NCBI GenBank assembly: GCA_946404125.1 | Contig: CAMJCK010000008.1 | Coordinates: 17,667 to 81,666, forward strand | Direction of reading: 5' to 3' | Source: an uncultured Bacteroidota bacterium | GTDB taxonomy: Bacteria > Bacteroidota > Bacteroidia > Bacteroidales > SZUA-534 | DNA length: 64,000 bases | Shown here: one piece after another, positions 8,908 through 53,300 of the stretch | How positions within the stretch are numbered: position 1 is the first letter of the stretch | Layout: each line of letters starts with the position of its first letter | Made by a program: the position numbers and the translations under genes | Notes under the pieces: generated by a model | What the model saw: the letters and a program-made list of their open reading frames with translations, nothing else | Databases searched by the model: none | Told to the model about the DNA's origin: nothing

Positions 8908-11340
8908 TCAGGCTGTTTTTGTGCGTTTGTAAACTCCCCAGCCGATGCTTCCAACCACAAACGTAAGCATCAGAATCAGGAACGTCATACTAATCTTGTC
9001 GCCCTTGTAGATGGAGTCGGGGCGGAACTCAAACCTGATTTGGTGCTCGCCGGCCGGAATGTTGAGCGCGCGCAGCACGTAGTTGGCGCGGAAAATCTCG
9101 GCAGGCTGTTCGTCGATGTAGGCTTTCCATCCATACGGGTAGTATATTTCCGAGAAAACAGCCGTTTTTGCCTCGTTTGAAACTGATTGATACTCAAGCT
9201 CGTCGGGTGCATAGCTCGTCAGGCGGATTGATGCGGCCGTGTCGGGCGTGGCGTTGAAGTTCTGCACCAGATTGCTGAATTTTGCATCGGTGACAATGGT
9301 TGCGGGCGATTGGATGTTGTTCAGCGCGTCGCACTCCTCGCGCGGTGTTGAGGCTACAATCAGCGAGTCGGCAAACCAGCAGTTGCCCCAGGCCTCGGGG
9401 TTCAGCATTGGAGTCGCACCATCGTTGGTTTGCTGAATTATATATTTGGTGTTCAGCATATTAAGCACGTTCATATGGCCGCGTGAGATGTGCTCCTCAA
9501 TCAAATCCTGATAGCGGCGCAGTTTGGCTGCGTGGTAGCCGCCAATCGATTTCAGGTAATACGATGTGCGGGCGTCGTTGAAGGTGTTTGTGGTGAGGTT
9601 CAGCACGCGGAAATCGGGGTCTGTATCTCGCAGAATCTGAGTCTCATAGTCGTATTGGTTGAAGTAGCTTTTGCGGTCTTTGTCGTTAACAAAATGGTCG
9701 TTGCCGAAATAGCGCTTGTTCACCGGCCAAAGGTCGATGAGAATCAGTGCGCCGAGAACCACAAGTGTGGCCGTGTTCTTGAGTTTGCCGGCCACAAACA
9801 GCCACAGTGTTGCGAATGCCGCTGCAACAAACAGCAGCGAGCGGAAGGCGTCTGATGTCAGCATTGAGGCTCGCTCGCTCACAATCAGCTTGTTAATCCA
9901 ATCGGGTAACTGTTTGAAAATCTGTGCGTCGTTGGCCGATGTGAAGCTGAACATTGAGCCGCCGAACAGCGCCAGCAGCAGGCAGATGCCGCCAGTTACG
10001 CCGCCCGATATGCACAAGGCCTTTGTAAGTTCCTTACGGTCAATCTTTTTATCGAAAATCTGCTGCAGGGCCATAAATCCGAGAATCGGCATCGTCACTT
10101 CGGCAATGACCAAAATCGATGACACGGCGCGGAACTTGTTATACATTGGGAAATAGTTGAAAAACAACGATGTAAGTCCTTCGAAATGACGGCCCCAGGC
10201 CAGCAGAATCGAGAAGACCGTGGCGGCCAGAAGCGCCCATTTGTAAGGGCTTTTCACGATTATCAGCCCCAGCAGGAACAGGAAGCAGACAATGGCTCCA
10301 ACATAGACGGGACCTTCGGTGAAGGGTTGGTCGCCCCAGTACATCGGCAGGCTTTGGCAGAACTGTTTTGCGTTGTTTTTTGGCACGCCCTGTTTCACCA
10401 TCTCGTTGTAAAGGTCTGATTTTGTGCCGACATTGTAGTGCGACGAGCCGCCGTTGAAATTCGGAACCAGCAGCGTCATTGTCTCGCCAATGCCGTAGCT
10501 CCAGCTTGTCGCGTAGTCGAAATCGAGGCCGGTCTGTGCCTTTCCGCCGCTTTCGTGCAGCTCCGAGTGGCCGCCGCGCATTGTTTCCTTCACGTAGTCG
10601 GCGTTCGATTTAACGTTGCTGTATCCCGTTCCGAGTCCGATGCCGAGCGACACGGCAAAAATGCCGACACCAATCAATAAATCTTTTATTCGATTGTTTT
10701 TCAGATGTATATACAATTCCGCCACACCAAAAACGGCTAGCATCATCATATAATAATAAGCCATCTGCGGGTGCAGAATCATTCCGAAAGCAGTGAAAAC
10801 CATTGTCAGACAGGCGCCTAACAGGTATCGTTTTTTGAAAATATAGACGAATCCGGCAATCACACACGCCATATAGCCGATGGCGTACACTTTGTTGATG
10901 TGCCCGGCCGCGATAATTATCAGAAAATAAGTGGATAGTGTTATCGCTATTGAACCGATTATCGACAGCCATTTGCTCACATCGAAGGCGCGCATCAGAA
11001 TGAAAAAGCCGAAAAGATAGGTGAGGAACCACGCCCAAACCGAGCCGAGGAAGAAGGTGTAAGCCTTGCGTAACTTGCTGATTGTCCTCGATGTAGGCGT
11101 TGAGAACCCGATTTGATAGGTTGGCATTCCGCCAAAGAGCGAGTTGGTCCAATACGATGTGTGGCCGGTGGCTTTCGCGAATTCGCTCACCTCGTGGCCG
11201 GCACAGGCGCCGCTTATCATATCAGTCTGCGACAGCACTTTGCCGTTGAGCGCGGGCCAGCAGTAGGCCATTGTCAGCGCAAAAAACACACCCAGAGCCA
11301 CAATGTATGGCGTAAACTTCTTAAAATCGATTCCCTTCAT
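8908..11340 (-). CDS. YfhO-family polytopic membrane protein (putative glycosyl-transfer related)
   Basis: About 810 aa with more than 10 hydrophobic segments and a large C-terminal extracytoplasmic domain, the layout typical of Bacteroidota YfhO. The start was chosen at MKGIDFKKF (ATG complement at 11338-11340) rather than the upstream ORF extension. Confidence 0.6.
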   Translation of the reverse strand: MKGIDFKKFTPYIVALGVFFALTMAYCWPALNGKVLSQTDMISGACAGHEVSEFAKATGHTSYWTNSLFGGMPTYQIGFSTPTSRTISKLRKAYTFFLGSVWAWFLTYLFGFFILMRAFDVSKWLSIIGSIAITLSTYFLIIIAAGHINKVYAIGYMACVIAGFVYIFKKRYLLGACLTMVFTAFGMILHPQMAYYYMMMLAVFGVAELYIHLKNNRIKDLLIGVGIFAVSLGIGLGTGYSNVKSNADYVKETMRGGHSELHESGGKAQTGLDFDYATSWSYGIGETMTLLVPNFNGGSSHYNVGTKSDLYNEMVKQGVPKNNAKQFCQSLPMYWGDQPFTEGPVYVGAIVCFLFLLGLIIVKSPYKWALLAATVFSILLAWGRHFEGLTSLFFNYFPMYNKFRAVSSILVIAEVTMPILGFMALQQIFDKKIDRKELTKALCISGGVTGGICLLLALFGGSMFSFTSANDAQIFKQLPDWINKLIVSERASMLTSDAFRSLLFVAAAFATLWLFVAGKLKNTATLVVLGALILIDLWPVNKRYFGNDHFVNDKDRKSYFNQYDYETQILRDTDPDFRVLNLTTNTFNDARTSYYLKSIGGYHAAKLRRYQDLIEEHISRGHMNVLNMLNTKYIIQQTNDGATPMLNPEAWGNCWFADSLIVASTPREECDALNNIQSPATIVTDAKFSNLVQNFNATPDTAASIRLTSYAPDELEYQSVSNEAKTAVFSEIYYPYGWKAYIDEQPAEIFRANYVLRALNIPAGEHQIRFEFRPDSIYKGDKISMTFLILMLTFVVGSIGWGVYKRTKTA

Positions 11341-11943: not shown

Positions 11944-11965
11944 ATTTAATTTGTTATGTCTTGTT

Positions 11966-13216
11966 TTACAATAAAATCCACTTCCAAACGGGGACCACAT
12001 CAATAGTCAATTCGCCAACGGTTATTTGTTCTTCGGTGTTTTTGGTGATAATCAGCGCTTTATTGAGTTTCTCGGTTTCGCTCAGTTTCACAAGAGCGTT
12101 CACTTCGCGCTTTCTTGTGGTCTCATCGTCAATGTCGTACGCCGCTTGAATGCCTAATTTCTCGTCGGGTACAAAAAAATCGACTTCGGAGTTTTGCTTG
12201 TAGTAGAAAAGGCCGTCGCCATATTTTTTGTGCAGAAAAACGGCGCAAATGTTTTCCAACAGCAGATTTTCGGAGTCCATCAAGAACAGATTCAGTATGC
12301 CGTTATCGATAAAGTAGTGTTTTTTAGTGGTTTGCCGGTCAACAAACTTGTCGGCGTGGTTCTCGATTGAAAAAATCAGACAAGAATCGTGAAGATATTG
12401 TATGAAATTGGAAACTGTTGACGCATTGATACTTATGCCGGTTGATTTGATAAGGTTCGCCAGCCGGTTGAACGATGTCGGTTGCATAACGCACGCCGCC
12501 AGCCTTTTGACGGCCATCCGTAGCGCATCTTCGCTGCGAATGCCGTTTCTGACAACAATATCGTTGAAAAATATTTTGTTGTAAATGCCTGTCAACCATT
12601 GCCTTTTGGCTTTTATACCTATTAGTTCCGGAAAACCGCCGAAGTAGAAATAATCTTCAAAAAGCCTTGCCACGTCGTTCTGCTTTTTCGAGAACTGCCA
12701 GTTCTTTTCAAGTTTGACATTTTTGGCAATCAGATATTCCTTGAATGAGAATGGGTAAACCATTATGTCCCAATATCTTCCGCCCAAAGTTGTTTGTATG
12801 TCGCGACTCAGCATTTTTGCATTGCTGCCGGTGATGTAAACCGTATATTTTTCGTTTGCAAGGCGGCGGGCGAAGTGTTCCCAACCTGTTATGTTTTGAA
12901 TTTCGTCGAGGAAAAGAATTGGTTCTAAGTCGGTTAACAGTCTGTGCGCCTGTAGAATAATGTCGAGTTCAGACGATTTTATTTCGTTTATGCGCTCATC
13001 GTCAAAATTGATATAAACAATTTGCTCTATGCTAACTCCTTCGCTGATAAGTTGTTGCGCACGTTGAATAAGCATATACGATTTCCCGGCCTGCCTCACG
13101 CCCACAAAAACATAGCACCCATTGTCTTCAATGGCCAAATTGCGCTTTATAAGCTCAACTGATAGTATATATTGTTGGTTTTCAACAATTACGTTCCTTA
13201 TCAATTCCTTATTCAT
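11966..13216 (-). CDS. AAA+ ATPase with C-terminal DUF4143-type domain (COG1373-like)
   Basis: Walker A GVRQAGKSYML and Walker B ILFLDEIQ. The length and C-terminal region are typical of the AAA_14/DUF4143 architecture. Start chosen at MNKELIRN (13214-13216). Confidence 0.75.
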   Translation of the reverse strand: MNKELIRNVIVENQQYILSVELIKRNLAIEDNGCYVFVGVRQAGKSYMLIQRAQQLISEGVSIEQIVYINFDDERINEIKSSELDIILQAHRLLTDLEPILFLDEIQNITGWEHFARRLANEKYTVYITGSNAKMLSRDIQTTLGGRYWDIMVYPFSFKEYLIAKNVKLEKNWQFSKKQNDVARLFEDYFYFGGFPELIGIKAKRQWLTGIYNKIFFNDIVVRNGIRSEDALRMAVKRLAACVMQPTSFNRLANLIKSTGISINASTVSNFIQYLHDSCLIFSIENHADKFVDRQTTKKHYFIDNGILNLFLMDSENLLLENICAVFLHKKYGDGLFYYKQNSEVDFFVPDEKLGIQAAYDIDDETTRKREVNALVKLSETEKLNKALIITKNTEEQITVGELTIDVVPVWKWILL

Positions 13217-13246
13217 ACAAGTTTGTTTTCCACAAAAATACAAAAG

Positions 13247-13330
13247 TTTCTTATATGCAAGATACTTTTGTTGCGATTTTATCTTGTATGTAAGATATTT
13301 TTGACATAGTTTTATCTTTTATGCAAGATA
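13247..13330. promoter_or_regulatory. Three phased operator-like palindromes TATCTT-N6-AAGATA at exactly 33-bp spacing
   Basis: Copies are TTTCTTatatgcAAGATA (13247-13264), TATCTTgtatgtAAGATA (13280-13297) and TATCTTttatgcAAGATA (13313-13330). They lie upstream of the minus-strand ATPase gene, whose -7 box is at 13233-13240. Confidence 0.6.
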
Positions 13331-13346
13331 TTAATTCAATCCTTCA

Positions 13347-13364
13347 TCCCGATAGCTATCGGGA
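13347..13364. repeat. REP-like 18-bp palindrome TCCCGATAGCTATCGGGA (copy 1)
   Basis: A perfect palindrome, bracketed by an 11-bp direct repeat ATTCAATCCTT (13334-13344 and 13373-13383). The right copy overlaps the MBL gene stop codon. Confidence 0.7.
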
Positions 13365-14135: not shown

Positions 14136-14231
14136 TTCAGTCTGAAATTGTGCGCTAATGTAGTTTCAATATTGCAAACGGCGGCTCGGGCGGCAAAAAG
14201 TTTTTCTCGCACGAGCGAAATCCGTTGCTAA

Positions 14232-15521
14232 TCAATTCTTCAGGCAGGCGAGCGGAACCACATACACGCCGTCGGCTCGGCGGTAGCCGTACATTCCGCC
14301 TGTCAGAATCAGAAGCAAGTCGGGCTCGTGTATCTTGTTCTGTTTCTCGGTTTTATTATGTTCCACAATCAGTCGTTTCAGTTCCAGCAGATGCTTTGCG
14401 GCCAGTTCAATCTCGCCACTTCCCAACTTGCACTCAATGAGCGCGTAACGGCCGTCGTTAAGATGCAGAACCACATCGGCTTCAAGGCCGTAGCGGTCGT
14501 GATAGTAGCCAACGTGCGTGTCGATGTCCGAAGTGTAGGCTTTCAGGTCGCGAATGCACAACTGCTCGAACATAAACCCGAACGTTTTGAGTTGCGTGGT
14601 GAACGAACTCGGCGTCATTTGCAGGGCCGCCACGGCGATGCTTGGGTCGCAGAAAGACCGCTTTGGTGTGTTGCGGATGGCATCTTTGCTGCGCACGGCG
14701 GGGCACCACGCGCCAATGTCCTGAATGATAAACAGTTTCTCGAATGCTTTGACATACGAAGTGAAGGTGTCCATTGAGCAGTCAATCTCTTCGGAAGCCG
14801 AAACATCGGCCAGCAAGGTTGTTTTCTTTGCCAGAGTTGAGATGTTGCGGGCATACGAGCGCAGAATCATCCGAGCCAGTTTCTCGTCGCGCGAGACACC
14901 GTCAACCCTGCTCACATCTTCTTTGCAGGCGGTGCGGAAATAGTTTTTCGCCACCATAAGTTTCGATTTGTCGTCGCGCAGCCGCAGTGACGCGGGCCAG
15001 CCGCCACGGCAGGTTATGAAGATAAGTTGGTCAATATCAACGTCGGAAACCGCTTCGATGTTCATTTGCGGATTGTCGAAAAGGTCTTTCAGACTGATTT
15101 CGCCATTCGACTCTTTCGATTCCCACAGGCTCATCGGCAGCATTTCCATCTGCGATATGCGTCCATTTCCAGAGTGCAGCGTCTGCGATTTGTCTACGGT
15201 GTTCGACCCAGTCAATATGAATTGGCCTTCCAGCCCGCGACTGTCAACCGTAGAGCGCACGGCGTCCCACAAGGCGGGAATGTCCTGCCATTCGTCAATC
15301 AGACGTGGCGTGGCGCCCCGTAGCAGAAGCGCGGGGTTGGTTGCGGCAGTGGCAATGTACTGCGCTCTCATTTCGGTGTCTTGCAATTTGATGACGCTTG
15401 CCGCGATGTGTTCGGCCGATGTGGTTTTTCCGCACCATTTCGGACCTTCAATCAGCACTGCACCAAAGGCGTTTAGTCGTTCTTGTATTTGGCTGTCGGC
15501 CATACGCTCTAGGTATTCCAT
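14232..15521 (-). CDS. AAA+ ATPase with C-terminal DUF4143-type domain (second paralogue)
   Basis: Walker A GPKWCGKTT and Walker B LIDEWQ. The architecture matches 11966-13216 but the sequence is divergent. Start at MEYLERM (15519-15521), with a TATATTTG box on the minus strand at 15546-15553. Confidence 0.75.
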   Translation of the reverse strand: MEYLERMADSQIQERLNAFGAVLIEGPKWCGKTTSAEHIAASVIKLQDTEMRAQYIATAATNPALLLRGATPRLIDEWQDIPALWDAVRSTVDSRGLEGQFILTGSNTVDKSQTLHSGNGRISQMEMLPMSLWESKESNGEISLKDLFDNPQMNIEAVSDVDIDQLIFITCRGGWPASLRLRDDKSKLMVAKNYFRTACKEDVSRVDGVSRDEKLARMILRSYARNISTLAKKTTLLADVSASEEIDCSMDTFTSYVKAFEKLFIIQDIGAWCPAVRSKDAIRNTPKRSFCDPSIAVAALQMTPSSFTTQLKTFGFMFEQLCIRDLKAYTSDIDTHVGYYHDRYGLEADVVLHLNDGRYALIECKLGSGEIELAAKHLLELKRLIVEHNKTEKQNKIHEPDLLLILTGGMYGYRRADGVYVVPLACLKN

Positions 15522-15580
15522 AATATTGTATTTATATTTAGGCTGCAAATATATGAATAATAATTTAATATCCCATTTTT

Positions 15581-15695
15581 ATTCGGTGTTTTCGTGGTAA
15601 TTCATTCGGTGTTTTCGCGGTAATTTGTTCGGTGTTTTTGTGGTAATTCATTCGTCGTTTTCGTGGTAATTCATTCGGTGTTTTTGTGATGAATT
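15581..15695. repeat. Five tandem copies of a 23-bp unit ATTCGGTGTTTTCGTGGTAATTC
   Basis: The units are 15581-15603, 15604-15626, 15627-15649, 15650-15672 and 15673-15695. Copies 2-4 differ from the first unit by 1-3 substitutions and the fifth is more degenerate. The array lies directly upstream of the -7 box of the minus-strand ATPase gene 14232-15521. Confidence 0.85.
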
Positions 15696-15820
15696 TGCCG
15701 ATGCCGAATGGTGTGATTAAAGTGGCTTTTTCCGCTGAAATAATTGCGCCATTGTACTCTCAAAATGCAATACGCGGTGCAAATCTGAAAACTTTTCTAT
15801 TTTAGCATTGAAATATTTGA

Positions 15821-15850
15821 AACAATGAAAGGCAATCTTTACCTGATACC
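15821..15850 (+). repeat. Left copy of a perfect 30-bp direct repeat AACAATGAAAGGCAATCTTTACCTGATACC
   Basis: Identical to 16969-16998. Here the embedded ATG opens only MKGNLYLIP followed by a stop. Confidence 0.9.
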
Positions 15851-15962
15851 ATAATTCTGTTCCCAATGCAATAATGGAAATATTGGTAAAATGATAGTAA
15901 TTTGGGCGATAATAACAAATGGACTTGGTCTGATTTAATAACAAATAAAATAGTAATAAAGT

Positions 15963-16823
15963 ATGCGGAATTTTATAGTACAAACGATTAGTACAGTTGC
16001 GGTTGCACTTACCGCAAATCTAACTATGGCACAAAACTCAACTGAAACATTTTCATTTAAAGAGTTTGCTGATTTGTTTAAAAATACAATAAGCCTTCCT
16101 AATAATTCGGAAGAATTATTAAATGTGGATTATTCAAAATGTCCTGTAATTGATTGCGAATTATACAATTTCATTGTTATAAAGAATCAAAAAGAAAGAG
16201 CCAAAAGAAGGACAATTAAAGGTGAGGATTTTAGAATTACAAAATATGGTCTTGCCGATTGTGAAGGTATGACAGTTAATGATGAATTGTTTTTTGAAAA
16301 GACATACGCTCTCGGTCAGATAGAAAACAAAAAATATAAAATCTTCATTGCACGAATAGAAAGCGTTATGAATACATTTATTGACTTATATGTATTTGAC
16401 ACGGAAGGAAGAATAATATCATTTCTTGATTTGTATGAGGATGAAAGATATATTAAGGGTGACAAAAGATTCGTTGATAGTGTATTCATAAAATCAAAAA
16501 TTACAGATAATGGGGGCATTAATTGTGAAGAAAACCGATACTCTGTGAATGTAAAAATTGATTATTATTTGCAAGATGATGGCATATTAAAAGAAATGGC
16601 TATAACTAAAATTGGGCAACATATGATTGTTGACAAAGACGGATATGTAAATGTAAGAGAGCGTCCCGATGGCAAATCAAAAATTTTATACACGATTGAA
16701 AGCGGTTCAATCATTAAATCACGTGCAGAAAATGGTTCTAAGTGGGAAGAAGTAATTAACGTTGAAGGGAGCGATAAAAAAGGCGGATATATTCATTCAA
16801 GTAGGCTTGCAAATTATTGGTAA
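15963..16823 (+). CDS. Secreted hypothetical protein with C-terminal bacterial SH3-like domain
   Basis: Signal peptide MRNFIVQTISTVAVALTANLTMAQ. The C-terminal GYVNVRERPDGKSKILYTIESGSII...WEEV....GGYIHSSRL resembles SH3_3/SH3b. The gene is strongly AT-rich and lies between 30-bp direct repeats. Confidence 0.6.
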   Translation: MRNFIVQTISTVAVALTANLTMAQNSTETFSFKEFADLFKNTISLPNNSEELLNVDYSKCPVIDCELYNFIVIKNQKERAKRRTIKGEDFRITKYGLADCEGMTVNDELFFEKTYALGQIENKKYKIFIARIESVMNTFIDLYVFDTEGRIISFLDLYEDERYIKGDKRFVDSVFIKSKITDNGGINCEENRYSVNVKIDYYLQDDGILKEMAITKIGQHMIVDKDGYVNVRERPDGKSKILYTIESGSIIKSRAENGSKWEEVINVEGSDKKGGYIHSSRLANYW

Positions 16824-16882
16824 AAATGGCCTAATCACATAAATGTTTTTTCCTTAGCAAAATAAATCTGTGTAATCAGTGT

Positions 16883-16900
16883 CCCCGATAACTATCGGGG
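16883..16900. repeat. REP-like palindrome CCCCGATAACTATCGGGG (copy 2) within a ~50-bp conserved element
   Basis: It shares flanks with copy 3: AATAAATCTGTGTAATCAGTGT on the left and CTGTGCGA on the right. Confidence 0.7.
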
Positions 16901-16968
16901 CTGTGCGAGAAAAACAGCATTCACCCCCCTTACAATAATTTGCTAACTTTGTCCGAAAGCAAATCAAC

Positions 16969-16998
16969 AACAATGAAAGGCAATCTTTACCTGATACC
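16969..16998 (+). repeat. Right copy of the perfect 30-bp direct repeat (contains the real start codon of the methyltransferase gene)
   Basis: Identical to 15821-15850 and 1148 bp downstream of it. The intervening DNA is AT-rich and carries the SH3-domain gene. Confidence 0.9.
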
Positions 16999-17677
16999 CA
17001 CAACGTTAGGCGAGCAGCAGCCAGCCGATGTCATTCCAGCCAAGGTGTTGGGCGTGGCGGCTCAGTTGCGCCATTTTGTGGTCGAGAACACGCGCACGGC
17101 CCGTCGTTTTCTGCGCGCCGTCGACCCCAGTTTCCCAATAGACGACTCTGATTTTGTGGAACTTAACGAGCATACCGACCTGACAACCATTGGGCAGTAT
17201 CTCGACGCCTGTGAACGCGGCGAGCACGTGGGGCTGATGTCGGAAGCGGGCGCACCAGCCGTTGCCGACCCAGGAAACGCGGTGGTGGCAATGGCTCACC
17301 GAAAGGGCATCCGCGTGGTGCCAATGTCGGGGCCGTCGTCGATAATTCTTGCAATGATGGCTTCGGGGCTCAACGGCCAGAATTTCGCTTTTAACGGCTA
17401 TCTGCCTGTCAAACAGCCCGAACGCATTCGCGCTATCCGCAACTACGAGAAACGCTCGCAAAACGAGCACCAGACGCAACTTTTTATCGAGGCGCCCTAC
17501 CGCAATATGGCTCTCTTTGAGGACTTTATGCAGAATCTGCACCCCGAGACGCGCCTGTGCATCGCCGCTGATTTGACGCTCGAAACAGAGTTTGTGCTCA
17601 CCCTTCGCATCGCCGAATGGCCAAAACATAAGCCCGATTTGCACAAACGTCCAGCAATTTTTGCTATATTAGCGTAG
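16973..17677 (+). CDS. SAM-dependent methyltransferase of the tetrapyrrole-methylase/RsmI-like family
   Basis: MKGNLYLIPTTLGE...VVENTRTARRFL and GLMSEAGAPAVADPG are typical of RsmI-like TP_methylase proteins. Start at ATG 16973; the listed ORF begins at an upstream TTG. Confidence 0.7.
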   Translation: MKGNLYLIPTTLGEQQPADVIPAKVLGVAAQLRHFVVENTRTARRFLRAVDPSFPIDDSDFVELNEHTDLTTIGQYLDACERGEHVGLMSEAGAPAVADPGNAVVAMAHRKGIRVVPMSGPSSIILAMMASGLNGQNFAFNGYLPVKQPERIRAIRNYEKRSQNEHQTQLFIEAPYRNMALFEDFMQNLHPETRLCIAADLTLETEFVLTLRIAEWPKHKPDLHKRPAIFAILA

Positions 17678-17809: not shown

Positions 17810-17827
17810 TCCCGATAGTTATCGGGA
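17810..17827. repeat. REP-like palindrome TCCCGATAGTTATCGGGA (copy 3) within a ~55-bp conserved element
   Basis: The left flank is AATAAATTTGTGTAAATCAGTGT plus a 9-nt insertion. The right flank is CTGTGCGA. It lies 34 nt upstream of the add start codon. Confidence 0.7.
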
Positions 17828-20865: not shown

Positions 20866-20962
20866 AATTTTACTGCATTTACAAAAAAATGCATTATATT
20901 TGTGTATTACTTTAAGAATGAGAGTATTTACTTAATGTTTAACTAAAAAAACAACTATTATG
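20839..20962 (+). repeat. Copy A of a ~125-bp duplicated junction (OmpA-gene 3' end, -7 box, 5' leader)
   Basis: It aligns with 21497-21626 at roughly four positions in five by eye. Compare CGCACGGAGTTGAAGGTGGTGGAATAAAA with CGTGCGGAGTTGAAGATGGTGGATAAAAA. Both contain ...TTTGTGTATT...AATGAGAG.ATTTAC..AATGTTTAACTAAAA... followed by ATG. Confidence 0.8.
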
Positions 20963-21451
20963 AACAGCGTAATTTCAAAAACCACAGTTCTCGTCGCACT
21001 TGCGACTGTCCTTTTTTCTTGCAAAAACGATGATTTAAAGGATGATTCATTAGAAATCGATGCAAATAAGGAATGTTCAATTATTGTTCCTGACGGTGCA
21101 CCAAGAATGTTTAACGATGAATACTTGCAAATCACAAAAGATGGGAACGAGTATTCGCTTTTTGCGACAACCAAAGGCTTCTATTGGAATGAAGTCATAT
21201 CTTTAATGGTGGATATCAATGGGTTGGACAAATACAGGCCTAACGAGAGAATTAAAATCAACAAGATTGATTTTGGAATGCCCGCATCATCAAATTCAAA
21301 CTATTTTACATCAAATTATAAAGGAAAGATTTATCTGCTGGAGTATTCCGAAAATGAGGCAAAATTGTATTTCGACAATCTGACATTTACTCTTCCCGAT
21401 GGAGCCTATGTTATGGACGGAAAACTCACATTTTCAATGAAAAATGAATGA
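20960..21451 (+). CDS. Hypothetical lipoprotein
   Basis: Lipobox-type signal MNSVISKTTVLVALATVLFSC. AT-rich. No family recognised. Confidence 0.55.
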   Translation: MNSVISKTTVLVALATVLFSCKNDDLKDDSLEIDANKECSIIVPDGAPRMFNDEYLQITKDGNEYSLFATTKGFYWNEVISLMVDINGLDKYRPNERIKINKIDFGMPASSNSNYFTSNYKGKIYLLEYSENEAKLYFDNLTFTLPDGAYVMDGKLTFSMKNE

Positions 21452-21496
21452 CATTGACGCTCATAGCAAGGTTTATTTCCGTTGATGCAACGTAAA

Positions 21497-21626
21497 CGTG
21501 CGGAGTTGAAGATGGTGGATAAAAAGTTTCAGACAACGACATTTAACAAAAAAATACGCTATGTTTGTGTATTGAATTAATAATGAGAGAATTTACCAAA
21601 TGTTTAACTAAAATGGCACGTTTATG
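21497..21626 (+). repeat. Copy B of the duplicated junction (relic of the OmpA-gene C-terminal codons plus promoter and leader), preceding the 414-aa lipoprotein gene
   Basis: See copy A. It contains a non-coding relic of the RTELKVVE-stop codons and a TATGTTTG -7 box at 21560-21567. Confidence 0.8.
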
Positions 21627-44347: not shown

Positions 44348-47300
44348 ATGAAAAAACTATTTGCCAAGTTTTTCGCAGTTATGGCTATGGCCATAGGTAC
44401 TGCTGTGTCAGTTTTCGGACAAAACGGTTTCACTTATCAGGCGGTCATCCGCGACTCGGAGGGCGTGCTGGTCACCGGCAGGCAGGTTGAGGTCACGTTC
44501 AGCCTGAAGCACGACGGCACCGTCTACTACTCCGAGAAGCAGGAGGTGAGGACCAACGAGTACGGCAACATCCAGGTTGTCGTGGGCGAGGGAGAGAAGC
44601 TCGACGGCGACTTCGCCAGCGTGCCGTGGAGCACCTTCGACATCAAGATGGAGGTGTCCGTGGAGATTGACGGCAAGCACACAACCCTCGGCGAGGTACC
44701 GGTGCAGGGAGCGCCGTACGCGATGCACGCGCAGAAGGCCGGAGGCATCACGTCGAAGAATGCCAACACCAAGGACGGCGACGCTCTGTTCGCCGTTAAC
44801 GACGCCAGCGGCAACCCCGTGTTCGCCGTTTACGCCGACGGCATTGTGGTGTATGTTGACGACACCGAGACAGCCAAAGCCAAACGCAGCGGCTTTGTGG
44901 TTACCGGACGCTCGGCCACGAAGGGGGAGAGCACGACAGAATACTTCTCGGTAACAGCCGAGGGCACACAGATATACGTTGACGACGTGGCCGACAAGGC
45001 CAAGCGCAGCGGCTTCGTAGTCACGGGCCGCTCGGCCACCAAGGACGGCGACGCAGCCGACTACCTCAAGGTGGGCGGCGAGGGCACCACGATATTCATC
45101 GACGACGACTCGTCGAAAGCCAAACGCAGCGGCTTTGTGGTGACAGGCCGCTCGGCCACCAAGGACGGCGACGAGCCGCAGTACTTCACGGCCACAACAG
45201 AAGGAACGACAGTGTATGTTGACGACACCTCGGCCGACAAGGCCAAACGCAGCGGCTTCGTAGTGACGGGCCGCTCGGCCACCAAGGGCGGCGACGCCGA
45301 CGACTATATGTCAATCGACGGCAGCGGCACACAGGTGTACGTTGACGGACTGGACTCCGACAAGGCCAAGAGAAGCGGCTTTGTGGTTACAGGGCGCTCG
45401 GCTAGCAAGGCCGAGGAGGACACGCTGTTCGCCATCGAGGGCGGATACACCCGCGTGTACATCAACGACGAGGATGAGGACAAGGCCAAGAGGAGCGGAT
45501 TTGTTGTGACAGGCCGCACCGCCTCAAAAGACACCTCAGCCACCAATATCTTCAACGTGAGCGGTGACGGCAACTTGGATATTCTGACCAACGACTTCAC
45601 CGTGAACGACACGCCGGAGGAGACGGAGGAGACGGACACCGCGGCCGTGCAGCCGCAGCCCGGCGACACCACCGGGACACCAGCCCCGGCCCCGGTCATA
45701 CCGAAGCCGAAGAGCCTGTTCACCATCAGCAGCGGAAACGTTCAGGTGGGCACCGAGATGGTTATGATGGGCGACGTCGCCAAGACGATCGAGGCCGACA
45801 CCATCAGTGTTGACACCGTAGAGGCCGAGTTCCCGCAGATAGCGAAGATTGTTGACCGCGCCGACACCATCAGCTGCGCCCCGTACAAGCCGTTCATCTA
45901 TGGCAACGACAGCGACAGCGAGGGATACACCCTGCTTGGAATCTACATTAACGGATCGTTGGCGAAAATCACAGCCACCGACTCGCGCAAGAACAAAGTC
46001 ATACTCTTCGACGCCGACGGCAACGTGATAAAACGCCAGAGAAACGCCACCGTGGCAGTTCTTATGCCCGAGGGCGACACGCAGATATACATCAGGCCTC
46101 TGAAGGCGACAAGCCAGACCATCAGCTTCGGCCTGATGAAGAAGAACGCCGTCGAGCCGTACCAGTACGTCAAGGTTGAGGCCGAGATAGAGGCTTCGGC
46201 CGGAGTTCCGTACAAGGTTAGGACGAGCAGCAACTACGGCGGCCAGATTGTCATAGACGGCACCGTGGCCTACGGCGACCAGCCGACCTTCGAGCCTGTG
46301 CCGATGACCGGCTACAAGTTCGTTCGCTGGAGCGACGGAAGCACGAGGGCCAAACGCACCTTCACCATCCTCGACGACTTCGAGATATCGGCCGAGTTCG
46401 AGCGTATGAGCTACGTTGTCGCTGTTAAATCCGACAACGAGCTGTACGGAACGGTTACCGGCAGCGGCTCGGGCACCTACTGGCACGGCGACACGCTTAG
46501 AGTTGAGGCGGAGCCGGCTACGGGCTACTACTTCAGCAACTGGAGCGGCGCGGAGCTTGGCGACAGCCAGCAGAGCAGCAGCCTTGCGCTGGAGGTGACA
46601 TCGAAACTGAAGCTGATAGCGCACTTCGGCGTGAAGCAGTACACCATAACATTCGACACCGACGGCGGCAGCGAGATAGAGCCGGCCGTTGTGTACTACC
46701 AGGACAAGGTGACCGCGCCCGCCGAGCCGCAGAGAGAGGGCTACCGCTTCCTGGATTGGGAGCCGCGGCTTCCGAAAGAGATGCCTGCGGAGGACCTGAC
46801 CGTGAAGGCTACGTGGAGCGTCAAGCAGTACCTGATCACGTTCGACACCGACGGCGGCACCCCGGTTGACATTATAGACGCCAACTACGGCGAGGCCGTC
46901 ACAACCCCGGAGGCCCCGACCAGAGAGGGCCACACCTTCGCAGGCTGGAGCGACAGCATACCGGCCGTGATGCCGGCGCGCGACTTGAGAATCAAGGCGT
47001 TGTGGACTGTTAACCAGTACACCATCAAGTTCGATACCGACGGCGGCAGCAAGGTTGACAGCATAACAACGGACTACGGCACCAAGATTGCCGCACCTGA
47101 GAATCCGACCAAGGAGGGCTACACCTTTGCCGGTTGGAAGCCAGAGCTTCCGGCCACAATGCCTGCCGAGCTGACAGTCTGCACTGCACAGTGGAGCCTG
47201 AACGCACACAATATTATATATGTGGTTGACGACACCGTTTATGCCACCATCGACAGCGTGAACTACGGCGATGAGATTGAGCCGATAGACGCACCCGAAA

Positions 47301-50300
47301 GGACCGGCTACACCTTCAGCGGATGGAAGTTCAACGGCAAGGATGAGCTGCCGAAGACAATGCCCGACAGCGACATCACCATTACCGGCGGCTTCACGGT
47401 TAACCAGTACACCATCAAGTTCGAGACCGACGGCGGAAGCAAGGTTGACAGCATAACAATGGATTACGGAGCGAAGGTTACAGCACCTGAGAATCCGACC
47501 AAAGAGGGCTACACCTTTGCCGGTTGGAAGCCAGAGCTTCCGGCCACAATGCCTGCCGAGCTGACAGTCTGCACTGCACAGTGGAGCCTGAACGCACACA
47601 ATATTATATATGTGGTTGACGACACCGTTTATGCCACCATCGACAGCGTGAACTATGGCGATGATATTGAGCCGATTGACGCACCCGAAAGGACCGGCTA
47701 CGTGTTTAGCGGATGGCAGAATGTGCCTGCGACGATGCCCGACAGCACCGTCACCATCAGCGGATGGTTCACCGCGGGCTCTGTAACGCTCACGTTCACA
47801 GATGAGAACGGCGAGAACCCGATTGTGATTGCCGGCAACTACGGCGAGAAGGTTAAGATGCCGGAGAACCCGACCAAAGTGGGCTACACCTTCGCAGGCT
47901 GGACACCTGAGGTACCGGCCACAATGCCGGCCGAGGACGCCACCTTCAAGGCCACCTGGAGCGTTAACCAGTACACCATCAAGTTTGAGACCGACGGCGG
48001 AAGCAAGGTTGACAGCATAACAATGGACTACGGTGAGAAGATTGCCGCGCCGGAGAATCCGACCAAAGAGGGCTACACCTTCGCGGGATGGGATCCCGAG
48101 CTGCCCGAGACGATGCCTGTAAACGGAGCGACCTACACGGCGCAATGGACTGTGAACCAGTACACCATCAAGTTTGAGACCGACGGCGGAACCGAGGTTG
48201 ACAGCATAAAGATGAATTACGGCGCGTCGGTTACAGCACCTGAGAATCCGACCAAAGAGGGCTACACCTTTGCCGGTTGGAAGCCGGAGATACCGGCCAC
48301 AATGCCAGCCGAGCTGACAATCTGCACGGCACAATGGAGCCTGAACTCACACAATATTATATATATGGTTGAAGACACAGTCTATGCAACCATAAAGGAT
48401 GTGGCATACGGCACTGAGATTGAGCCTGTTACGATTGCCAGCAAGCCGGGCTACGACTTCAGCGGCTGGATGCTCAACGGCGAGGACGAGATGCCGAAGA
48501 CAATGCCCGACTGCACTGTTGTGCTCAGCGGCAAGTGGACGGCAAGCGACAAGACCGAGTACACGGTGATTGTCTATGTTCAGAACGCCGACAACAAGGA
48601 GTATGGCGAGCTGCCGGAAAGCAGCGAGACCTACTACGGCACCACCGGCACTATGACCAACTATGAGCCGGAGGAGCGCGAGGGCTTCGGGGCGGATGTT
48701 TCGCAGAAAGAAATCAGCGGCGACGGCTCGACGAAGATTTACGTCTACTACAACCGCATCAGCTATGAGATGAACTGGGGCGCCAACGGCGGCCAGTTTG
48801 AGGAAGGCACGACAATGGTGTTTGACACGCTCGCCTACGGAGCGAAGGTTGCAATGCCGAAGAGTCCGACCAGGGAGGGCTACACCTTCGCGGGCTGGAG
48901 CGACACACTGGCAACAATGCCGGCTTCGAACGTAACCGTCACGGCGAAGTGGGAAATCAACAAGCACACAATCACATACACAATTGACGGCGAAGTCTAT
49001 GTAACCGAAAAGAACGTGGTTTACGGAACTGAGATTAAGCCGTTTGATGGTCCCGAAAGGGAGGGCTACACCTTCATCGGATGGAAGTATGACGGCAAGG
49101 AGAAACTGCCGGAGACAATGCCCGACAGCGATGTCTTGTTCACCGGCACGTGGTCGGCAAACGACATCGTCTATGTTGTTGAGCACCTGCAGGCTGACCT
49201 GAGCGGCGAGTACACCATTCTGGCACAGCGCGATACGCTTACAGGCAAGGCAGGCGCCCAGACCGACGCCAAGGCTGAATCGTTCACCGGCTTCGAGGCC
49301 CAGACATTCAGCAACATTGAGATTGGAACCACCGACTTTGAGACAACGGTTGTCATCAACTACAAGCGCCTGAGCTACACACTGACTTGGGACGCCAACG
49401 GCGGAACCATCGACGGCAAGAGCGACAGCACCCAGACACTTCTGTTTGGGGCGCCGATAGTTGCTCCGACAGTTGAGCGCACAGGCTACGAGTGCAGCGG
49501 CTGGGCCGGTCTGGAAGTTGAGACTATGCCAGCCAAAAACCTCTCGGTTATGGCCTTGTGGGGCGCAGGCGAGGTTATCTACACCATTGAGCACAAAGGC
49601 GAGGGAGTAAACGGCGAATACACCATCATTGAGCAGAATACGAAAACCGGAACGACCGGCGAGCAGACAAAAGCCGCACCGAAAGAGTTCCCGGGCTTTA
49701 CCGCACCTGCAAGCATCGGCCAGCAGACAATCAAGGCCGACGGCTCGACAGTGGTTGAAATCCTCTACACCCGCAACAGCTATTACGTGATCTGGGACGC
49801 CAACGGCGGAACCATCGATGGCAAAGAGGCTGACACAGTGCCGGTTATATATGGTGCAACCATAAGCAAGCCTACCAATCTGGTACGCAAGGGCTACTCG
49901 TTCAGCAGCTGGACGCCGGAAGTTCCGGCCCAAATGCCGGCCAGGGACACCACCTTCAGCGCCAAGTGGGATACGCTGACCTACAGCATCACCTTCAAGG
50001 ATACCGCGGGCAGCACATTCGCGATGGCAAACCCGACGGCGTACACCGTCAACGACACAATCGTAATCGAGAATCCTGAGAAAGCAGGTTACACCTTCCA
50101 GGGCTGGACTGGCGGCAAGTGGACAACAGCCACCAAGGATATTGTTATCTTGAACGATACAGGCCGCATTGAGCTGAAAGCCAATTGGAACGCCGATGTA
50201 ACCTTATACAAGGTTCTGCACAAATATGAAAATCTTACCACAGGCTACACTGTTGAAACTGAGCGTCTTTCGGGCTTGACCGGCAGCACGACAACGGCTC

Positions 50301-53300
50301 AGCCGCAGCCGCGTACCGGATTCACGGCTCCCGAGTTTGCCAGCATTCAGCAGCAGACAATCCGCCCGGGCAGCGACACCACAACAATCGAAATCGTCTA
50401 CACCCGCAACAGCTACGACCTGACTTGGAAGGATGGCGATGAAACTATTGACACCGAGCACATTAGGTTTGAGGCCGTAGTGACAATGCACAGCTCGCTC
50501 ACCCTTGACGGTTACACTTTCAAAGGCTGGAGCGACACTCTGACCACAATGCCGGCCGCAAGCACCACACTGACAGCCGTTTGGGAAATCAACCAATACA
50601 CCATCGCATTCGAATCGAATGGTGGCAGCGCAGTTGACGCAATCACAGCCGATTACGATGCTGATGTTACTGCTCCGGCCAACCCGACACGTGAGGGCTA
50701 CACCTTCAAGGGTTGGGCAACCACGGCAACCGCAACGGCTGACGATGTTGTGACAATCGCAAGCAAAATGCCGGTTGGCGGCGCAACATACTACGCCGTT
50801 TGGGCAATCAACCAATACACCATCACCTATGATTTGGATGGTGGCACAGTTGCAACAGCCAACGCCGGGGACTACACCGTTGTAAGCGAGGATATTACCC
50901 TCAACAACCCGACCCGCACGGGCTACACCTTTGCAGGTTGGACCGGCACTGGTTTGAGCGAGGCGACAACAGAGGTTACCATTGCCAAAGGCTCAACTGG
51001 AAACCGCACATTCACAGCTACTTGGTCGCCAATATCGTACACTATAACCGTTACGGCCACCCCCGCTGAGGGCGGAACAGCAACAGGCGGCGGCTCTTAC
51101 GATTACGACGGAACAGCCACTCTTAAAGCCACTCCAGCTACTGGTTATGACTTTATCGGTTGGGACGACGGCGTTACAACCGAACAACGCACCGTTAACA
51201 TCACGGGAGCGGCAAGCTATGTTGCCAACTTCACCAAAAAGACCTTTACGGTAACAGCCTCGGCCAATGAGGCGGAAGGCTCGGTAACTATTTCAGGCAC
51301 GGCGGTTAACGGCAAATACGAGTACGGCTCAACCATTGCGATTACCGCCACACCGGCCACTGGTTATCACTTTGTGAACTGGAACGGCAAGGACGAACTG
51401 AAAGATGCGGAAACCAGTTTTACAGTCACGAAAGACAGCGCGCTCACGGCCAACTTTGCCATCGACCAATTTACCTTGACCTTCGGCTCGACCGACGAAA
51501 CACTGGGCACAGTTGCCGCAAAAGCCAACGGCAAAACCATTGCCAGCGGCAGCAAAGTTGACTACGGCACCGAGGTGACACTCACCGCCACACCGGTGGC
51601 GCACTATCACTTCCACGGCTGGAACGACGCCTACAGCTATAGCGAGCGTACAGTGACAGTGAGTGATGATGTTGAATATGTGGCAGCGTTCGCGCCCGAT
51701 ATTTACGACATAACTCTGGTTGCAAACAATGGCACTGACGACGAGCCTGACGAAATGAGTATTACTTACGGCACCGCCACAACTCTGAAACAGAACAATT
51801 TTGAAAGGCCGGGCTATACATTCGCAGGCTGGGCACTCGAGGAGGGTGGTGAACCTGTTTTTGCCGATAAGGCCAACCTCTATGAAAAAGACAATGCTGA
51901 CACCTGGATTCTCAGCAGTACCACATTCTACGCCAAGTGGACAGCCAACACCAACACTCCGTACTCGGTTGTGGTGTATAAGCAGAAAGTTGACGGCAGC
52001 GGCTACGATGCAGAAACTCTGCAGATGACCGGCACCACCGGCACCGAAGTCAATTACGAGGAGAAGTTTACCGGCTTCACGCTGAACCCGTCCGAGCCAG
52101 TGACCATCAGCGGTGACGGAGATACGCAACTTGAGGTTTACTACTTGCGCAACAGCTACAAACTGACCTGGGACGCCAACGGCGGCAAGTTTGAGAGTGG
52201 CAAGGCGGATTCGGTTGCTACCGTGGCTTATGGGGCTAATGTGGAGATGCCTAAGACGGCGCCCAAGAAGACGGGCTACACCTTCAAAGGCTGGAGCGAC
52301 ACTCTGACCACAATGCCGGCTGAGAACACAACCCTGACAGCCGTTTGGGCTATCAACAAGTACACAGTGATCACACCCGATGCCTACAACGGCACCGTTA
52401 CGGGCGCGGGAACATACGACTATGGCACCGAAGTGACCATTACGGCCACACCCGATGCACACTACCAGTTTGTGAGCTGGAACGGCAACATCGAGTTGGG
52501 TGGCCCAACAGCCAGCTTCACGGTGACGAAAGACACCACGCTGGAAGCCACCTTTGAGCCCATTATGTACGCGCTCAGCTGGGATGCCAACGGCGGCAGC
52601 GATTTGACCGGCTCGTACACCATCGGTAGGTTGCCATTCGGCGAGTCAATTAGCGCTCCCGACGCACCCACACGCGCGGGCTACCAGTTCCTTGGCTGGG
52701 CAACCACGGCTGATGCCACCGAAGCAGTGACCGTGGCCGCAACAATGCCCGATACCGATGTAACATATTATGCAGTATGGAAGCTGCTCACCACGCTTTA
52801 TGTGGCTCCGGAGGCTGGCTCGCCGGCACTCGGAACGGCCGATAAACCGTTTGGCTCGATTGCCGATGCTGCGGCGGCGATGAACAGCGACACCGCCAAC
52901 TACACCATCCGCATCAGCGGAAAGATTGCCGGCACACAGAAACTTGCCAACACATTGAACGGCCGGGCCAAGAGCATCACCCTCTGCGGCCTCACGGGCA
53001 ACACCGCCGACAGTCTCTATGGCAACAACGCGGGCACGGTGCTTATCGATAGCACAACAGTTCCGGTAACGGTTAAGAACCTGAAGATTTCGGGCGGAAA
53101 CGCCGTGAAAGGCGGCGGCATCATAGTGGCTTCAGGAGCCACAGTTACGCTTGAAAGCGGAGCTCTGATTGGCGGAACAGCCGGCACTGCAGCAGCAAGC
53201 AGCAACTCGGCTTGTGCAAACTATGCGCAGCAGGGGGGTGGCGTTTATAGCGAGGGAACGCTCATTCTGAAAAACGGATCTGCAGTAATTTATAATTATA

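Follow-up and report, generated by a model that had tools for sequence, protein, structure and literature searches.

What leaves an exact 30-bp direct repeat on either side of an AT-rich, single-gene insert at the start of a housekeeping gene? The question is raised by a locus in an uncultured Bacteroidota bacterium (Bacteroidales; SZUA-534), within a 64,000-nucleotide (nt) stretch of assembly GCA_946404125.1 (contig CAMJCK010000008.1, positions 17,667–81,666, forward strand), referred to here as the window, in which the interrupted gene is an rsmI-like methyltransferase gene and the insert encodes a predicted secreted SH3-domain protein. We infer that the repeat is a recombination scar and not a recombination site, the incoming DNA having brought its own rsmI, and give this reading a probability of roughly 0.6. 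The features of the locus are listed below; handles beginning with L designate related genomes and contigs, and REP stands for repetitive extragenic palindromic.

15737–15820, plus strand: right copy of the ancestral intergenic region and probable native rsmI promoter, by similarity to L003 and L175
15821–15850, plus strand: left 30-mer, relic of the original rsmI start, with a mini open reading frame (ORF) MKGNLYLIP* at 15825–15854
15851–15889, no strand: 39-nt spacer between the relic and the toxin remnant, also found in L162 and L163; homology to the toxin locus starts only at 15890
15890–15991, plus strand: 3' remnant of a toxin-like gene, 33 codons and a stop, overlapping the ATG of the SH3 gene by 29 nt
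15963–16823, plus strand: predicted 286-residue secreted protein with a beta-rich N-terminal domain and a C-terminal bacterial SH3 domain, from Pfam, homologues and AlphaFold
16865–16910, plus strand: REP-like element (AATCTGTGTAATCAGTGT - CCCGATAACTATCGGG - GCTGTGCGAG) closing the cassette on its 3' side
16903–16968, plus strand: non-native 66-nt leader of the working rsmI, common to L162, L163, L001 and L002
16969–16998, plus strand: right 30-mer, start of the working rsmI copy, from an exact-copy search
16973–17677, plus strand: RsmI-like S-adenosylmethionine-dependent methyltransferase of the TP_methylase fold, 234 residues, Pfam PF00590

The 30-mer, AACAATGAAAGGCAATCTTTACCTGATACC, has two exact copies in the window (15821–15850 and 16969–16998), giving 30/30 identity between the two ends of the insert, and no further copy was found there with up to three mismatches allowed; a 30-mer match arose in 0 of 100 dinucleotide shuffles. 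Because the bases bordering both copies differ (a/c before, a/c after), the repeat is exactly 30 nt long. The left copy reads ATG AAA GGC AAT CTT TAC CTG ATA CCA TAA (MKGNLYLIP*) and so reaches a stop at once, and the right copy opens the full 234-residue ORF. The DNA between the copies has a GC content of 28–36% (29–31% in the SH3 gene) against 50–62% in the flanking genes and contains one ORF, 15963–16823; neither the ORF list nor a repeat search gave a second ORF, a recombinase, a transposase or terminal inverted repeats inside it. The initial annotation, made by a model from the letters alone, had described just this arrangement of a perfect repeat around an AT-rich one-gene insert lacking a recombinase, and each of these observations holds.

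In fold, length (~230 residues) and synteny the interrupted gene fits an RsmI-type 16S rRNA 2'-O-methyltransferase. Its product matches PF00590 with an E value of 2.4e-8 (34.6 bits, cut-off 27.8), distant homologues (68%) carry the JGI name 16S rRNA (cytidine1402-2'-O)-methyltransferase, and a genome scan returned 570 relatives; the position of the gene is syntenic across Bacteroidota.

Which of the two starts is native was judged from the nearest species without any cassette, L003 (81% RsmI identity) and L174–L177 (86%). In these cassette-free relatives a metallo-beta-lactamase (MBL)-fold hydrolase gene on the minus strand is followed by an intergenic region of 95–165 nt and then by rsmI. The intergenic region of L003 ('...gctaaaaacttttctacttttagcgacaattttttcgacaATGaaaggcaat') resembles the left context of the window ('...tctgaaaacttttctattttagcattgaaatatttgaaacaATGaaaggcaat'), with a local alignment score of 34 against 15.0±2.4 for shuffled sequence (0/2000), and that of L175 scores 29 against 15.4±2.3 (1/2000). 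In shuffle tests the 66 nt before the right copy showed no similarity to the left context or to the native intergenic regions, and descent of this leader (16903–16968) from the native upstream region by divergence was rejected (p about 0.4–0.5). Since the left context matches the native intergenic region and the right 66 nt do not, we read the left 30-mer as the original rsmI start. The earlier proposals that the insert lies within the 5' end of the methyltransferase gene, with its start duplicated, and that the native promoter region was stranded about 1.15 kb upstream are thereby supported.

Both starts are preceded by promoter-like motifs. The Bacteroidetes −7 promoter consensus is TAnnTTTG, and TATTTTAG at 15798–15805, 19 nt before the relic ATG, differs from it by one mismatch, within a motif (cttttcTAyTTTTAG) that is conserved in L003 and L174–L177. 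The leader of the working copy carries a perfect Bacteroidetes-type −7 motif, TAACTTTG, at 16944–16951, 21 nt before its ATG, from which a promoter function of the 66-nt leader may be deduced. The old rsmI promoter now lies directly upstream of the SH3 gene and probably drives it. A sigma-70 promoter and terminator scan was uninformative, the genome being that of a member of the Bacteroidetes.

The insert is one of several occupants of this position. Our RsmI genome scan provided L002 as well as L003, and the RsmI metagenome scan a single close relative, L082; in close relatives (RsmI 94–99% identical) the slot is filled by different genes, all co-oriented with rsmI:

L002, a sheep-rumen metagenome-assembled genome (MAG) labelled Salinivirgaceae: 190-residue membrane protein; junction at −24, no relic
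L082 and L185: DUF4268 protein, PADLOC candidate PDC-S11; no relic
L173: 372-residue secreted protein that shares only the SH3 domain with the protein in the window; relic present

The slot is a strain-variable hotspot with five alleles in an uncultured rumen Bacteroidia species, and the cassette of the window is not fixed in that species, as L002, L082, L185 and L173 carry other slot genes. Comparison of the alleles indicates that the slot was later overwritten in other strains by other conflict-type genes. Neither the SH3 protein nor the cassette of L002 had a match in PADLOC.

The left junctions differ between these alleles. They fall at −24 in L002 and at +26 in the window. In L173, the most telling of the alleles, the relic of the rsmI start ('ATGattaaaggcatttttaacctgatacccacaacgttaggcg') is more diverged and retains ~46 nt of coding sequence against 26 in the window, which puts its junction at about +46. 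In the window and in L173 alike, the two copies become similar at the start codon, and the point at which the likeness stops is peculiar to each allele; the common beginning argues for homology between two gene copies and not for a fixed crossover site. At position 19 the L173 relic has C, as in the main lineage, and its own working copy has T, so that the two L173 copies look like different alleles and not like one cut-and-fill product.

These observations make a target-site duplication, in which a 1118-nt foreign fragment (15851–16968) entered a 30-nt staggered break, very unlikely. It would account for an exact duplication that directly abuts foreign DNA, and the non-native 66-nt leader could have arrived with the fragment. 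Transposase target duplications are, however, typically far shorter than the 30 nt seen here or the ~46 and ~75 nt of the sister events, there are no terminal inverted repeats and no transposase, and the length of the duplication varies by allele. A random cut would also not be expected to start the repeat at the ATG in two alleles or to give copies that are different alleles, as in L173, and L002, with another cassette and no duplication, shares the 66-nt leader and a REP remnant, which points to a leader joined to rsmI before the event.

Recombination between two rsmI alleles would explain the same features as follows. The ancestral order, as comparison with the cassette-free relatives shows, was the MBL-fold hydrolase gene (minus strand), an intergenic region of ~95 nt with the rsmI promoter, and rsmI. 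In one lineage of this rumen species, DNA arriving from a relative would have brought an rsmI copy of its own, already preceded by a different leader, the REP-like element and the AT-rich gene. By one route, the right side would have been joined by a homologous crossover in or beyond rsmI, and the left side illegitimately, 26 nt inside the resident rsmI; by the other, a single crossover would have integrated a circularised fragment whose end lay 26 nt into rsmI. Both routes fit the sequence. On either, a dead stub would remain of the resident gene, made up of its promoter and first nine codons, and the incoming rsmI copy would take over, its new leader supplying a separate −7 box. The repeat would start near the ATG, where the alleles become alike, and end where the non-homologous joint fell. 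The left edge of the 39-nt spacer (15851–15889) is a non-homologous junction. We favour a scar on four grounds, namely the ATG start of the repeats, the variation of the far junctions, a leader that is non-native and a cargo lacking conserved ends; in this the homology-facilitated insertion that the initial annotation gave as one of two options is the favoured one.

Published precedents exist for both routes. In Escherichia coli, recircularised non-replicating DNA that integrated by a single crossover duplicated the homologous segment in 56 of 60 clones, and such crossovers were far commoner than homology-facilitated illegitimate recombination (HFIR), which yields insertion-deletions (PMC3240628); HFIR is also a mechanism proposed for arrays of orphan immunity genes in which effector 3' ends persist (PMC5361080). 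The locus resembles the Campbell-type and HFIR products (PMC3240628) in having an insert with a duplicated homologous segment, or one homologous and one arbitrary junction. It differs in that the duplication is 30 nt long against 109–950 bp in the experiments, that HFIR normally deletes, and that the present case is drawn from sequence comparison alone. The direct duplication around an insert that marks Campbell-type integration is found three times, with 30 nt here, ~46 nt in L173 and ~75 nt at the neighbouring ATPase module described below; arbitrary, allele-specific left junctions fit HFIR, which is expected to join at an arbitrary site with 3–10 bp of microhomology, and duplication rather than deletion does not.

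The same arrangement is present in independent assemblies of two other samples, L162 (Logan SRR33322312) and L163 (Logan SRR30827647), which share the order ATPase, relic, SH3 gene, palindrome and rsmI and are ~94% identical to the window throughout the region. Both 30-mers are perfect in L162. The left copy in L163 is aacaatgaaagAcaatctttacGtgatGcc, 27/30 identical with three nonsynonymous changes, beside a perfect right copy; because of these three substitutions the left copy is not considered to be under purifying selection, and by this evidence it drifts as dead DNA. Nucleotide identity between the strains is 91–93% in the SH3 gene and cassette and 95–97% in the MBL gene and rsmI. As this divergence about equals that of the flanks, the cassette has been inherited within the sub-lineage and not newly inserted, and the comparison shows the duplication to be older than the divergence of three or more of the strains sampled. 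An ancient, fixed duplication with diverged repeats, which had been raised as the finding that would refute the initial reading, is thus seen in part only: a diverged repeat does occur in L163, and L002, L082, L185 and L173 have other genes in the slot.

A stretch of 142 nt (15821–15962, comprising the relic, the spacer and the toxin remnant) is 100% identical to L162 5859–6000; for the adjoining SH3 ORF the identity of the two falls to 93%. This contrast suggests mosaic recombination within the cassette.

The two assemblies also dispose of an assembly artefact, either a mis-join at a k−1 overlap in a de Bruijn graph or a chimera of strains. Such an error was conceivable for an uncultured source organism whose closest record is a sheep-rumen MAG, given that 30 nt equals k−1 for assemblers run at k = 31. 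It is barely credible in view of the identical arrangement in L162 and L163 and of an analogous relic in L173 that accompanies a different cassette, and we rejected it on L163, where the copies differ at 3/30 positions and leave no repeat ambiguity.

The origin of the cargo can be traced further than that of the repeat. The SH3 protein has a hydrophobic leader at its N-terminus; its SH3_3 match (24.6 bits) lies below the gathering score of 27, and precomputed SH3_3/SH3_4 matches occur among its 43 homologues. The secreted SH3-domain protein and the palindrome named at the outset were accordingly recovered as to leader and palindrome, with the domain assignment leaning on the homologues. An AlphaFold model was confident for the N-terminal domain and poor for the SH3 domain. 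PDB sequence searches were empty, and exact-protein look-ups for the SH3 protein and for the neighbouring ATPase gave no match.

In nine contigs (L164–L172) an 80% amino acid homologue, P0006, directly follows a 1285-residue secreted fn3 protein with a 29-nt overlap, and is itself followed by a 163-residue transmembrane protein and then by a paralogous large gene. The C-terminal 167 residues of the 1285-residue protein form a separable module, and by analogy the layout is that of polymorphic toxin loci. The remnant at 15890–15991 translates as NDSNLGDNNKWTWSDLITNKIVIKYAEFYSTND*, to be compared with the C-terminus of the 1285-residue protein of L164 (...NGNNLGNNNLWEWSILQTNNIIINYAEIYSTND), and an in-frame stop stands immediately 5' of it. 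Nucleotide homology to the window covers 15890–16822 only in L164–L172, and 15926–16826 in L178, in an unrelated GC-rich context. A third context is provided by a Bacteroidales genome (L180, GCA_015061285.1 SUWW01000001.1, 3409–6110), in which a 65% homologue lies upstream of thrS-infC-rpmI-rplT with the toxin remnant kept. The remnant and the adjacency elsewhere show the cargo, at the level of sequence, to be an orphan module of a polymorphic-toxin-like locus. Two marks of an orphan immunity gene were found, namely a homologue next to a full-length toxin-like gene elsewhere and a retained toxin 3' fragment.

In the contigs L164–L172 (ENA/Logan) large secreted fn3 proteins are encoded in arrays, their C-terminal modules of 167 residues being exchangeable and some copies split by stops; such arrays resemble a polymorphic-toxin-like locus of rumen Bacteroidia that is as yet uncharacterised. 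In L180 different REP-like direct repeats of 44 nt (at 4803 and 5948) flank the SH3 homologue, and a neighbouring Y1_Tnp gene of the RAYT (REP-associated tyrosine transposase)/IS200-like type is bracketed by 56-nt inverted repeats; in L181 the left neighbour differs (mutS2). A 16-nt match to the trmD start downstream of the L180 islet was discarded as within chance (~0.2 expected, by our own estimate).

Site-specific integration, with the 30-mers as attL and attR, a recombinase acting in trans and an attC-like palindrome, is the alternative that these contexts test. Perfect 30-nt direct repeats at the exact ends of the insert are what it predicts, and the insert restores the gene 5' end and supplies a promoter-like motif, as gene-end-targeting elements do. 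It is nonetheless unlikely, as is an att-type element of any kind on the sequence evidence. In three other contexts the SH3 gene has neither the 30-mer nor the REP with it (none of L164–L172, L178 and the thrS context has the 30-mer or the window palindrome beside it), so that the prediction of the same 30-mer next to the gene in other taxa failed in at least three places. Relic length differs by allele and similarity always runs from the ATG, the left copy is decaying in L163, and L002, L082 and L185 are not products of precise excision or replacement at the 30-mer. No recombinase domain was detected by Pfam in the insert or in the ~16–20 window ORFs scanned. The mobile attL/attR cassette originally offered as the other option is therefore disfavoured by the cargo, the relics and the recombinase screen together.

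Excision would leave the empty-site junction ...GAAATATTTGA-AACAATGAAAGGCAATCTTTACCTGATACC-CACAACGTTAGG, and the excised unit a circle junction ...GCAAATCAAC-30mer-ATAATTCTGTTCC. No precise empty site was present among L001, L002, L082, L173, L185 and the carriers L162 and L163. The uninterrupted order of MBL gene, intergenic region and rsmI that had been expected of an empty site exists in L003 and L174–L177, which are more distant species, and not in close relatives.

The palindrome has features on both sides of this question. Four slot cassettes are co-oriented with rsmI and three have a terminal REP-like element, and a Y1 transposase (RAYT-like) gene adjoins the homologous cassette in another Bacteroidales genome, as a site-specific system would have it. 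The palindrome CCCGATAACTATCGGG lies at 16884–16899, with siblings in the 64 kb only at 13348 and 17811, and the larger element (AATCTGTGTAATCAGTGT-palindrome-CTGTGCGA) has three copies in the 64 kb, all at 13.3–17.8 kb, that follow the MBL gene, the SH3 gene and rsmI. Variants lacking the palindrome stand at the same place in L002 and L173, and in the cassette-free L174 a copy of the element lies upstream of rsmI. From this distribution the palindrome behaves as an ordinary REP-like intergenic element and not as a cassette-specific site. Rfam gave no match for the palindromes and repeats. A landing pad served by a recombinase in trans, with attC-like REP ends and a RAYT/Y1 or Xer-type enzyme encoded elsewhere, seems to us quite improbable; if real, it would be an integrase-less 'promoter-capture integron' in Bacteroidia, with conflict genes entering between a housekeeping promoter and its gene and the first codons being copied so that cargo and host gene both stay expressed.

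The palindrome, written as CCCGATAnnTATCGGG with conserved arms, occupies 13348–13363, 16884–16899 and 17811–17826, all within 4.5 kb around variable modules. In L162 an additional copy (9034–9049) is located 3' of an adenosine deaminase gene, so that the element is itself mobile or unstable.

Several points weigh against a scar left by incoming DNA and against the role we assign to the cargo. A single crossover confined to 30 nt would be about the shortest that RecA-type recombination allows. No locus was found with the order expected of the donor (SH3 gene, REP, 66 nt and rsmI, with no left relic), for which ATAATTCTGTTCCCAATGCAATAATGG with other left neighbours would be the marker; L001 may have this order but breaks inside the REP. 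The four cassettes all run in the direction of rsmI, three of them terminating in a REP-like element, a regularity that a dedicated mechanism predicts as well, and the recombinase screen covered ~16–20 window ORFs. We see duplication and not deletion, and classical HFIR usually deletes recipient DNA (PMC3240628). As to the cargo, the toxin-like C-terminus resembles papain-like proteins only weakly (Peptidase_C39_2, E 0.0035, below threshold), a Foldseek search of the SH3-protein model against the PDB gave nothing better than E = 0.04, and the proposed role of the SH3 protein as an orphan immunity-type gene comes from its context.

The scar reading gains a parallel from the DNA immediately upstream, where a second module, an ATPase gene, separates the MBL gene from the left 30-mer:

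14136–14225, no strand: left copy of the ancestral intergenic region, attached to the start of the MBL-fold gene, from alignment with L003 and with 15700–15820
14232–15521, minus strand: AAA_14/DUF4143 ATPase, from Pfam, PADLOC candidate defence gene PDC-S01 (PDLC04790, E 5e-61)
15578–15695, no strand: five tandem 23-nt repeats (TTCGGTGTTTTCGTGGTAATTCA-like) upstream of the ATPase gene, from a repeat search

The ATPase gene is absent from L003, L082 and L174–L177 and, on this comparison, is an older insertion into the same MBL–rsmI intergenic region. It is flanked by a diverged direct duplication of ~75 nt (14136–14225 and 15737–15820; score 28 against 14.5±2.2, 0/2000 shuffles), and in-silico removal of both modules gives an L003-like site. 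The module can thus be read as a second, older insertion-with-duplication at the same locus. The 23-nt repeats are kept, with variation, in L162, L163, L173 and L002 and may be a binding array for a regulator.

A further AAA_14/DUF4143 (PDC-S01) gene forms a module at 11947–13334 (ORF 11966–13216, minus strand, ~40% GC), with three 33-nt tandem repeats (13249–13330) upstream of the gene. This module is absent from L002 and L162, which have 16 nt in its place. A flanking duplication was tested for around it and none was found.

Among known systems the closest are orphan immunity genes with displaced toxin 3' ends, as in Rhs and contact-dependent inhibition loci, the immunity arrays of the T6SS (type VI secretion system) of Vibrio cholerae (PMC5361080) and the acquired interbacterial defence (AID) systems of Bacteroidales (bioRxiv 10.1101/471110). 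As in these, a low-GC gene is found alone at different loci in several genomes, elsewhere stands directly 3' of a toxin-like gene for a large secreted protein, and has kept that gene's final 33 codons; such arrays have been proposed to arise by recombination in which one end is non-homologous. Unlike them, the gene is alone here, upstream of a housekeeping gene and outside any toxin or T6SS locus or mobile element; the anchor is that housekeeping gene, leaving a relic of rsmI and not of an effector. The host also differs, being an uncultured rumen Bacteroidia member (a Salinivirgaceae-labelled MAG) and not Bacteroides or Vibrio.

Recombinase-associated AID (rAID-1) and integron arrays likewise have low-GC, co-oriented conflict genes behind a promoter, with a palindromic repeat after each. 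rAID-1 clusters are defined by at least two co-oriented low-GC (≤41%) genes separated by repeated intergenic motifs (10.1101/471110), whereas the slot has a single low-GC gene (~30%) and its palindrome also follows core genes. There is no XerD-like or IntI recombinase beside the slot, whose left neighbours are the DUF4143 ATPase and the MBL-fold hydrolase; one gene does not make an array, the cassette boundaries are not conserved, and the REP-like element occurs after ordinary genes and, in a relative that lacks a cassette, upstream of rsmI. Elements inserting at the ends of genes, such as tRNA 3' ends, share the duplicated gene end as borders, the restored intact gene and the expression signal brought along. 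They differ from this 1.1-kb insert with one cargo gene in that it has no integrase, a variable junction and no evidence of excision. The finding is a documented example of a hotspot with promoter capture, not a new kind of element.

Elsewhere in the window, an AT-rich segment at 20948–21501 contains an ORF (20960–21451, 163 residues, lipoprotein-like) with no Pfam match, unrelated to the 163-residue proteins of the toxin arrays; it aligns poorly to L002 at the same place and at 82% to L082, and may be another small variable islet. A low-GC (30–35%) stretch at 381–2200, with an FRG-domain ORF (381–1268) followed by a 1479-residue ORF, may be another acquired segment. The ORF at 44348–59281 (4977 residues, ~55–62% GC), with many internal repeats of 189 nt and ~120 nt, probably encodes a giant repetitive surface protein.

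The locus provides a natural record of single conflict-type genes, including candidate phage-defence genes and an orphan immunity-like gene, entering the core genome without mobile-element machinery. The start of a housekeeping gene would have served as the homologous anchor and its promoter would have been left to the newcomer. AT-rich DNA may be bordered by perfect direct repeats that are not att sites, and annotators should be aware of the relic start codons and displaced promoters that such events may leave behind. For this uncultured rumen Bacteroidia species, the hotspot is a specific place in which to seek turnover of toxin/immunity and defence genes at the level of strains.

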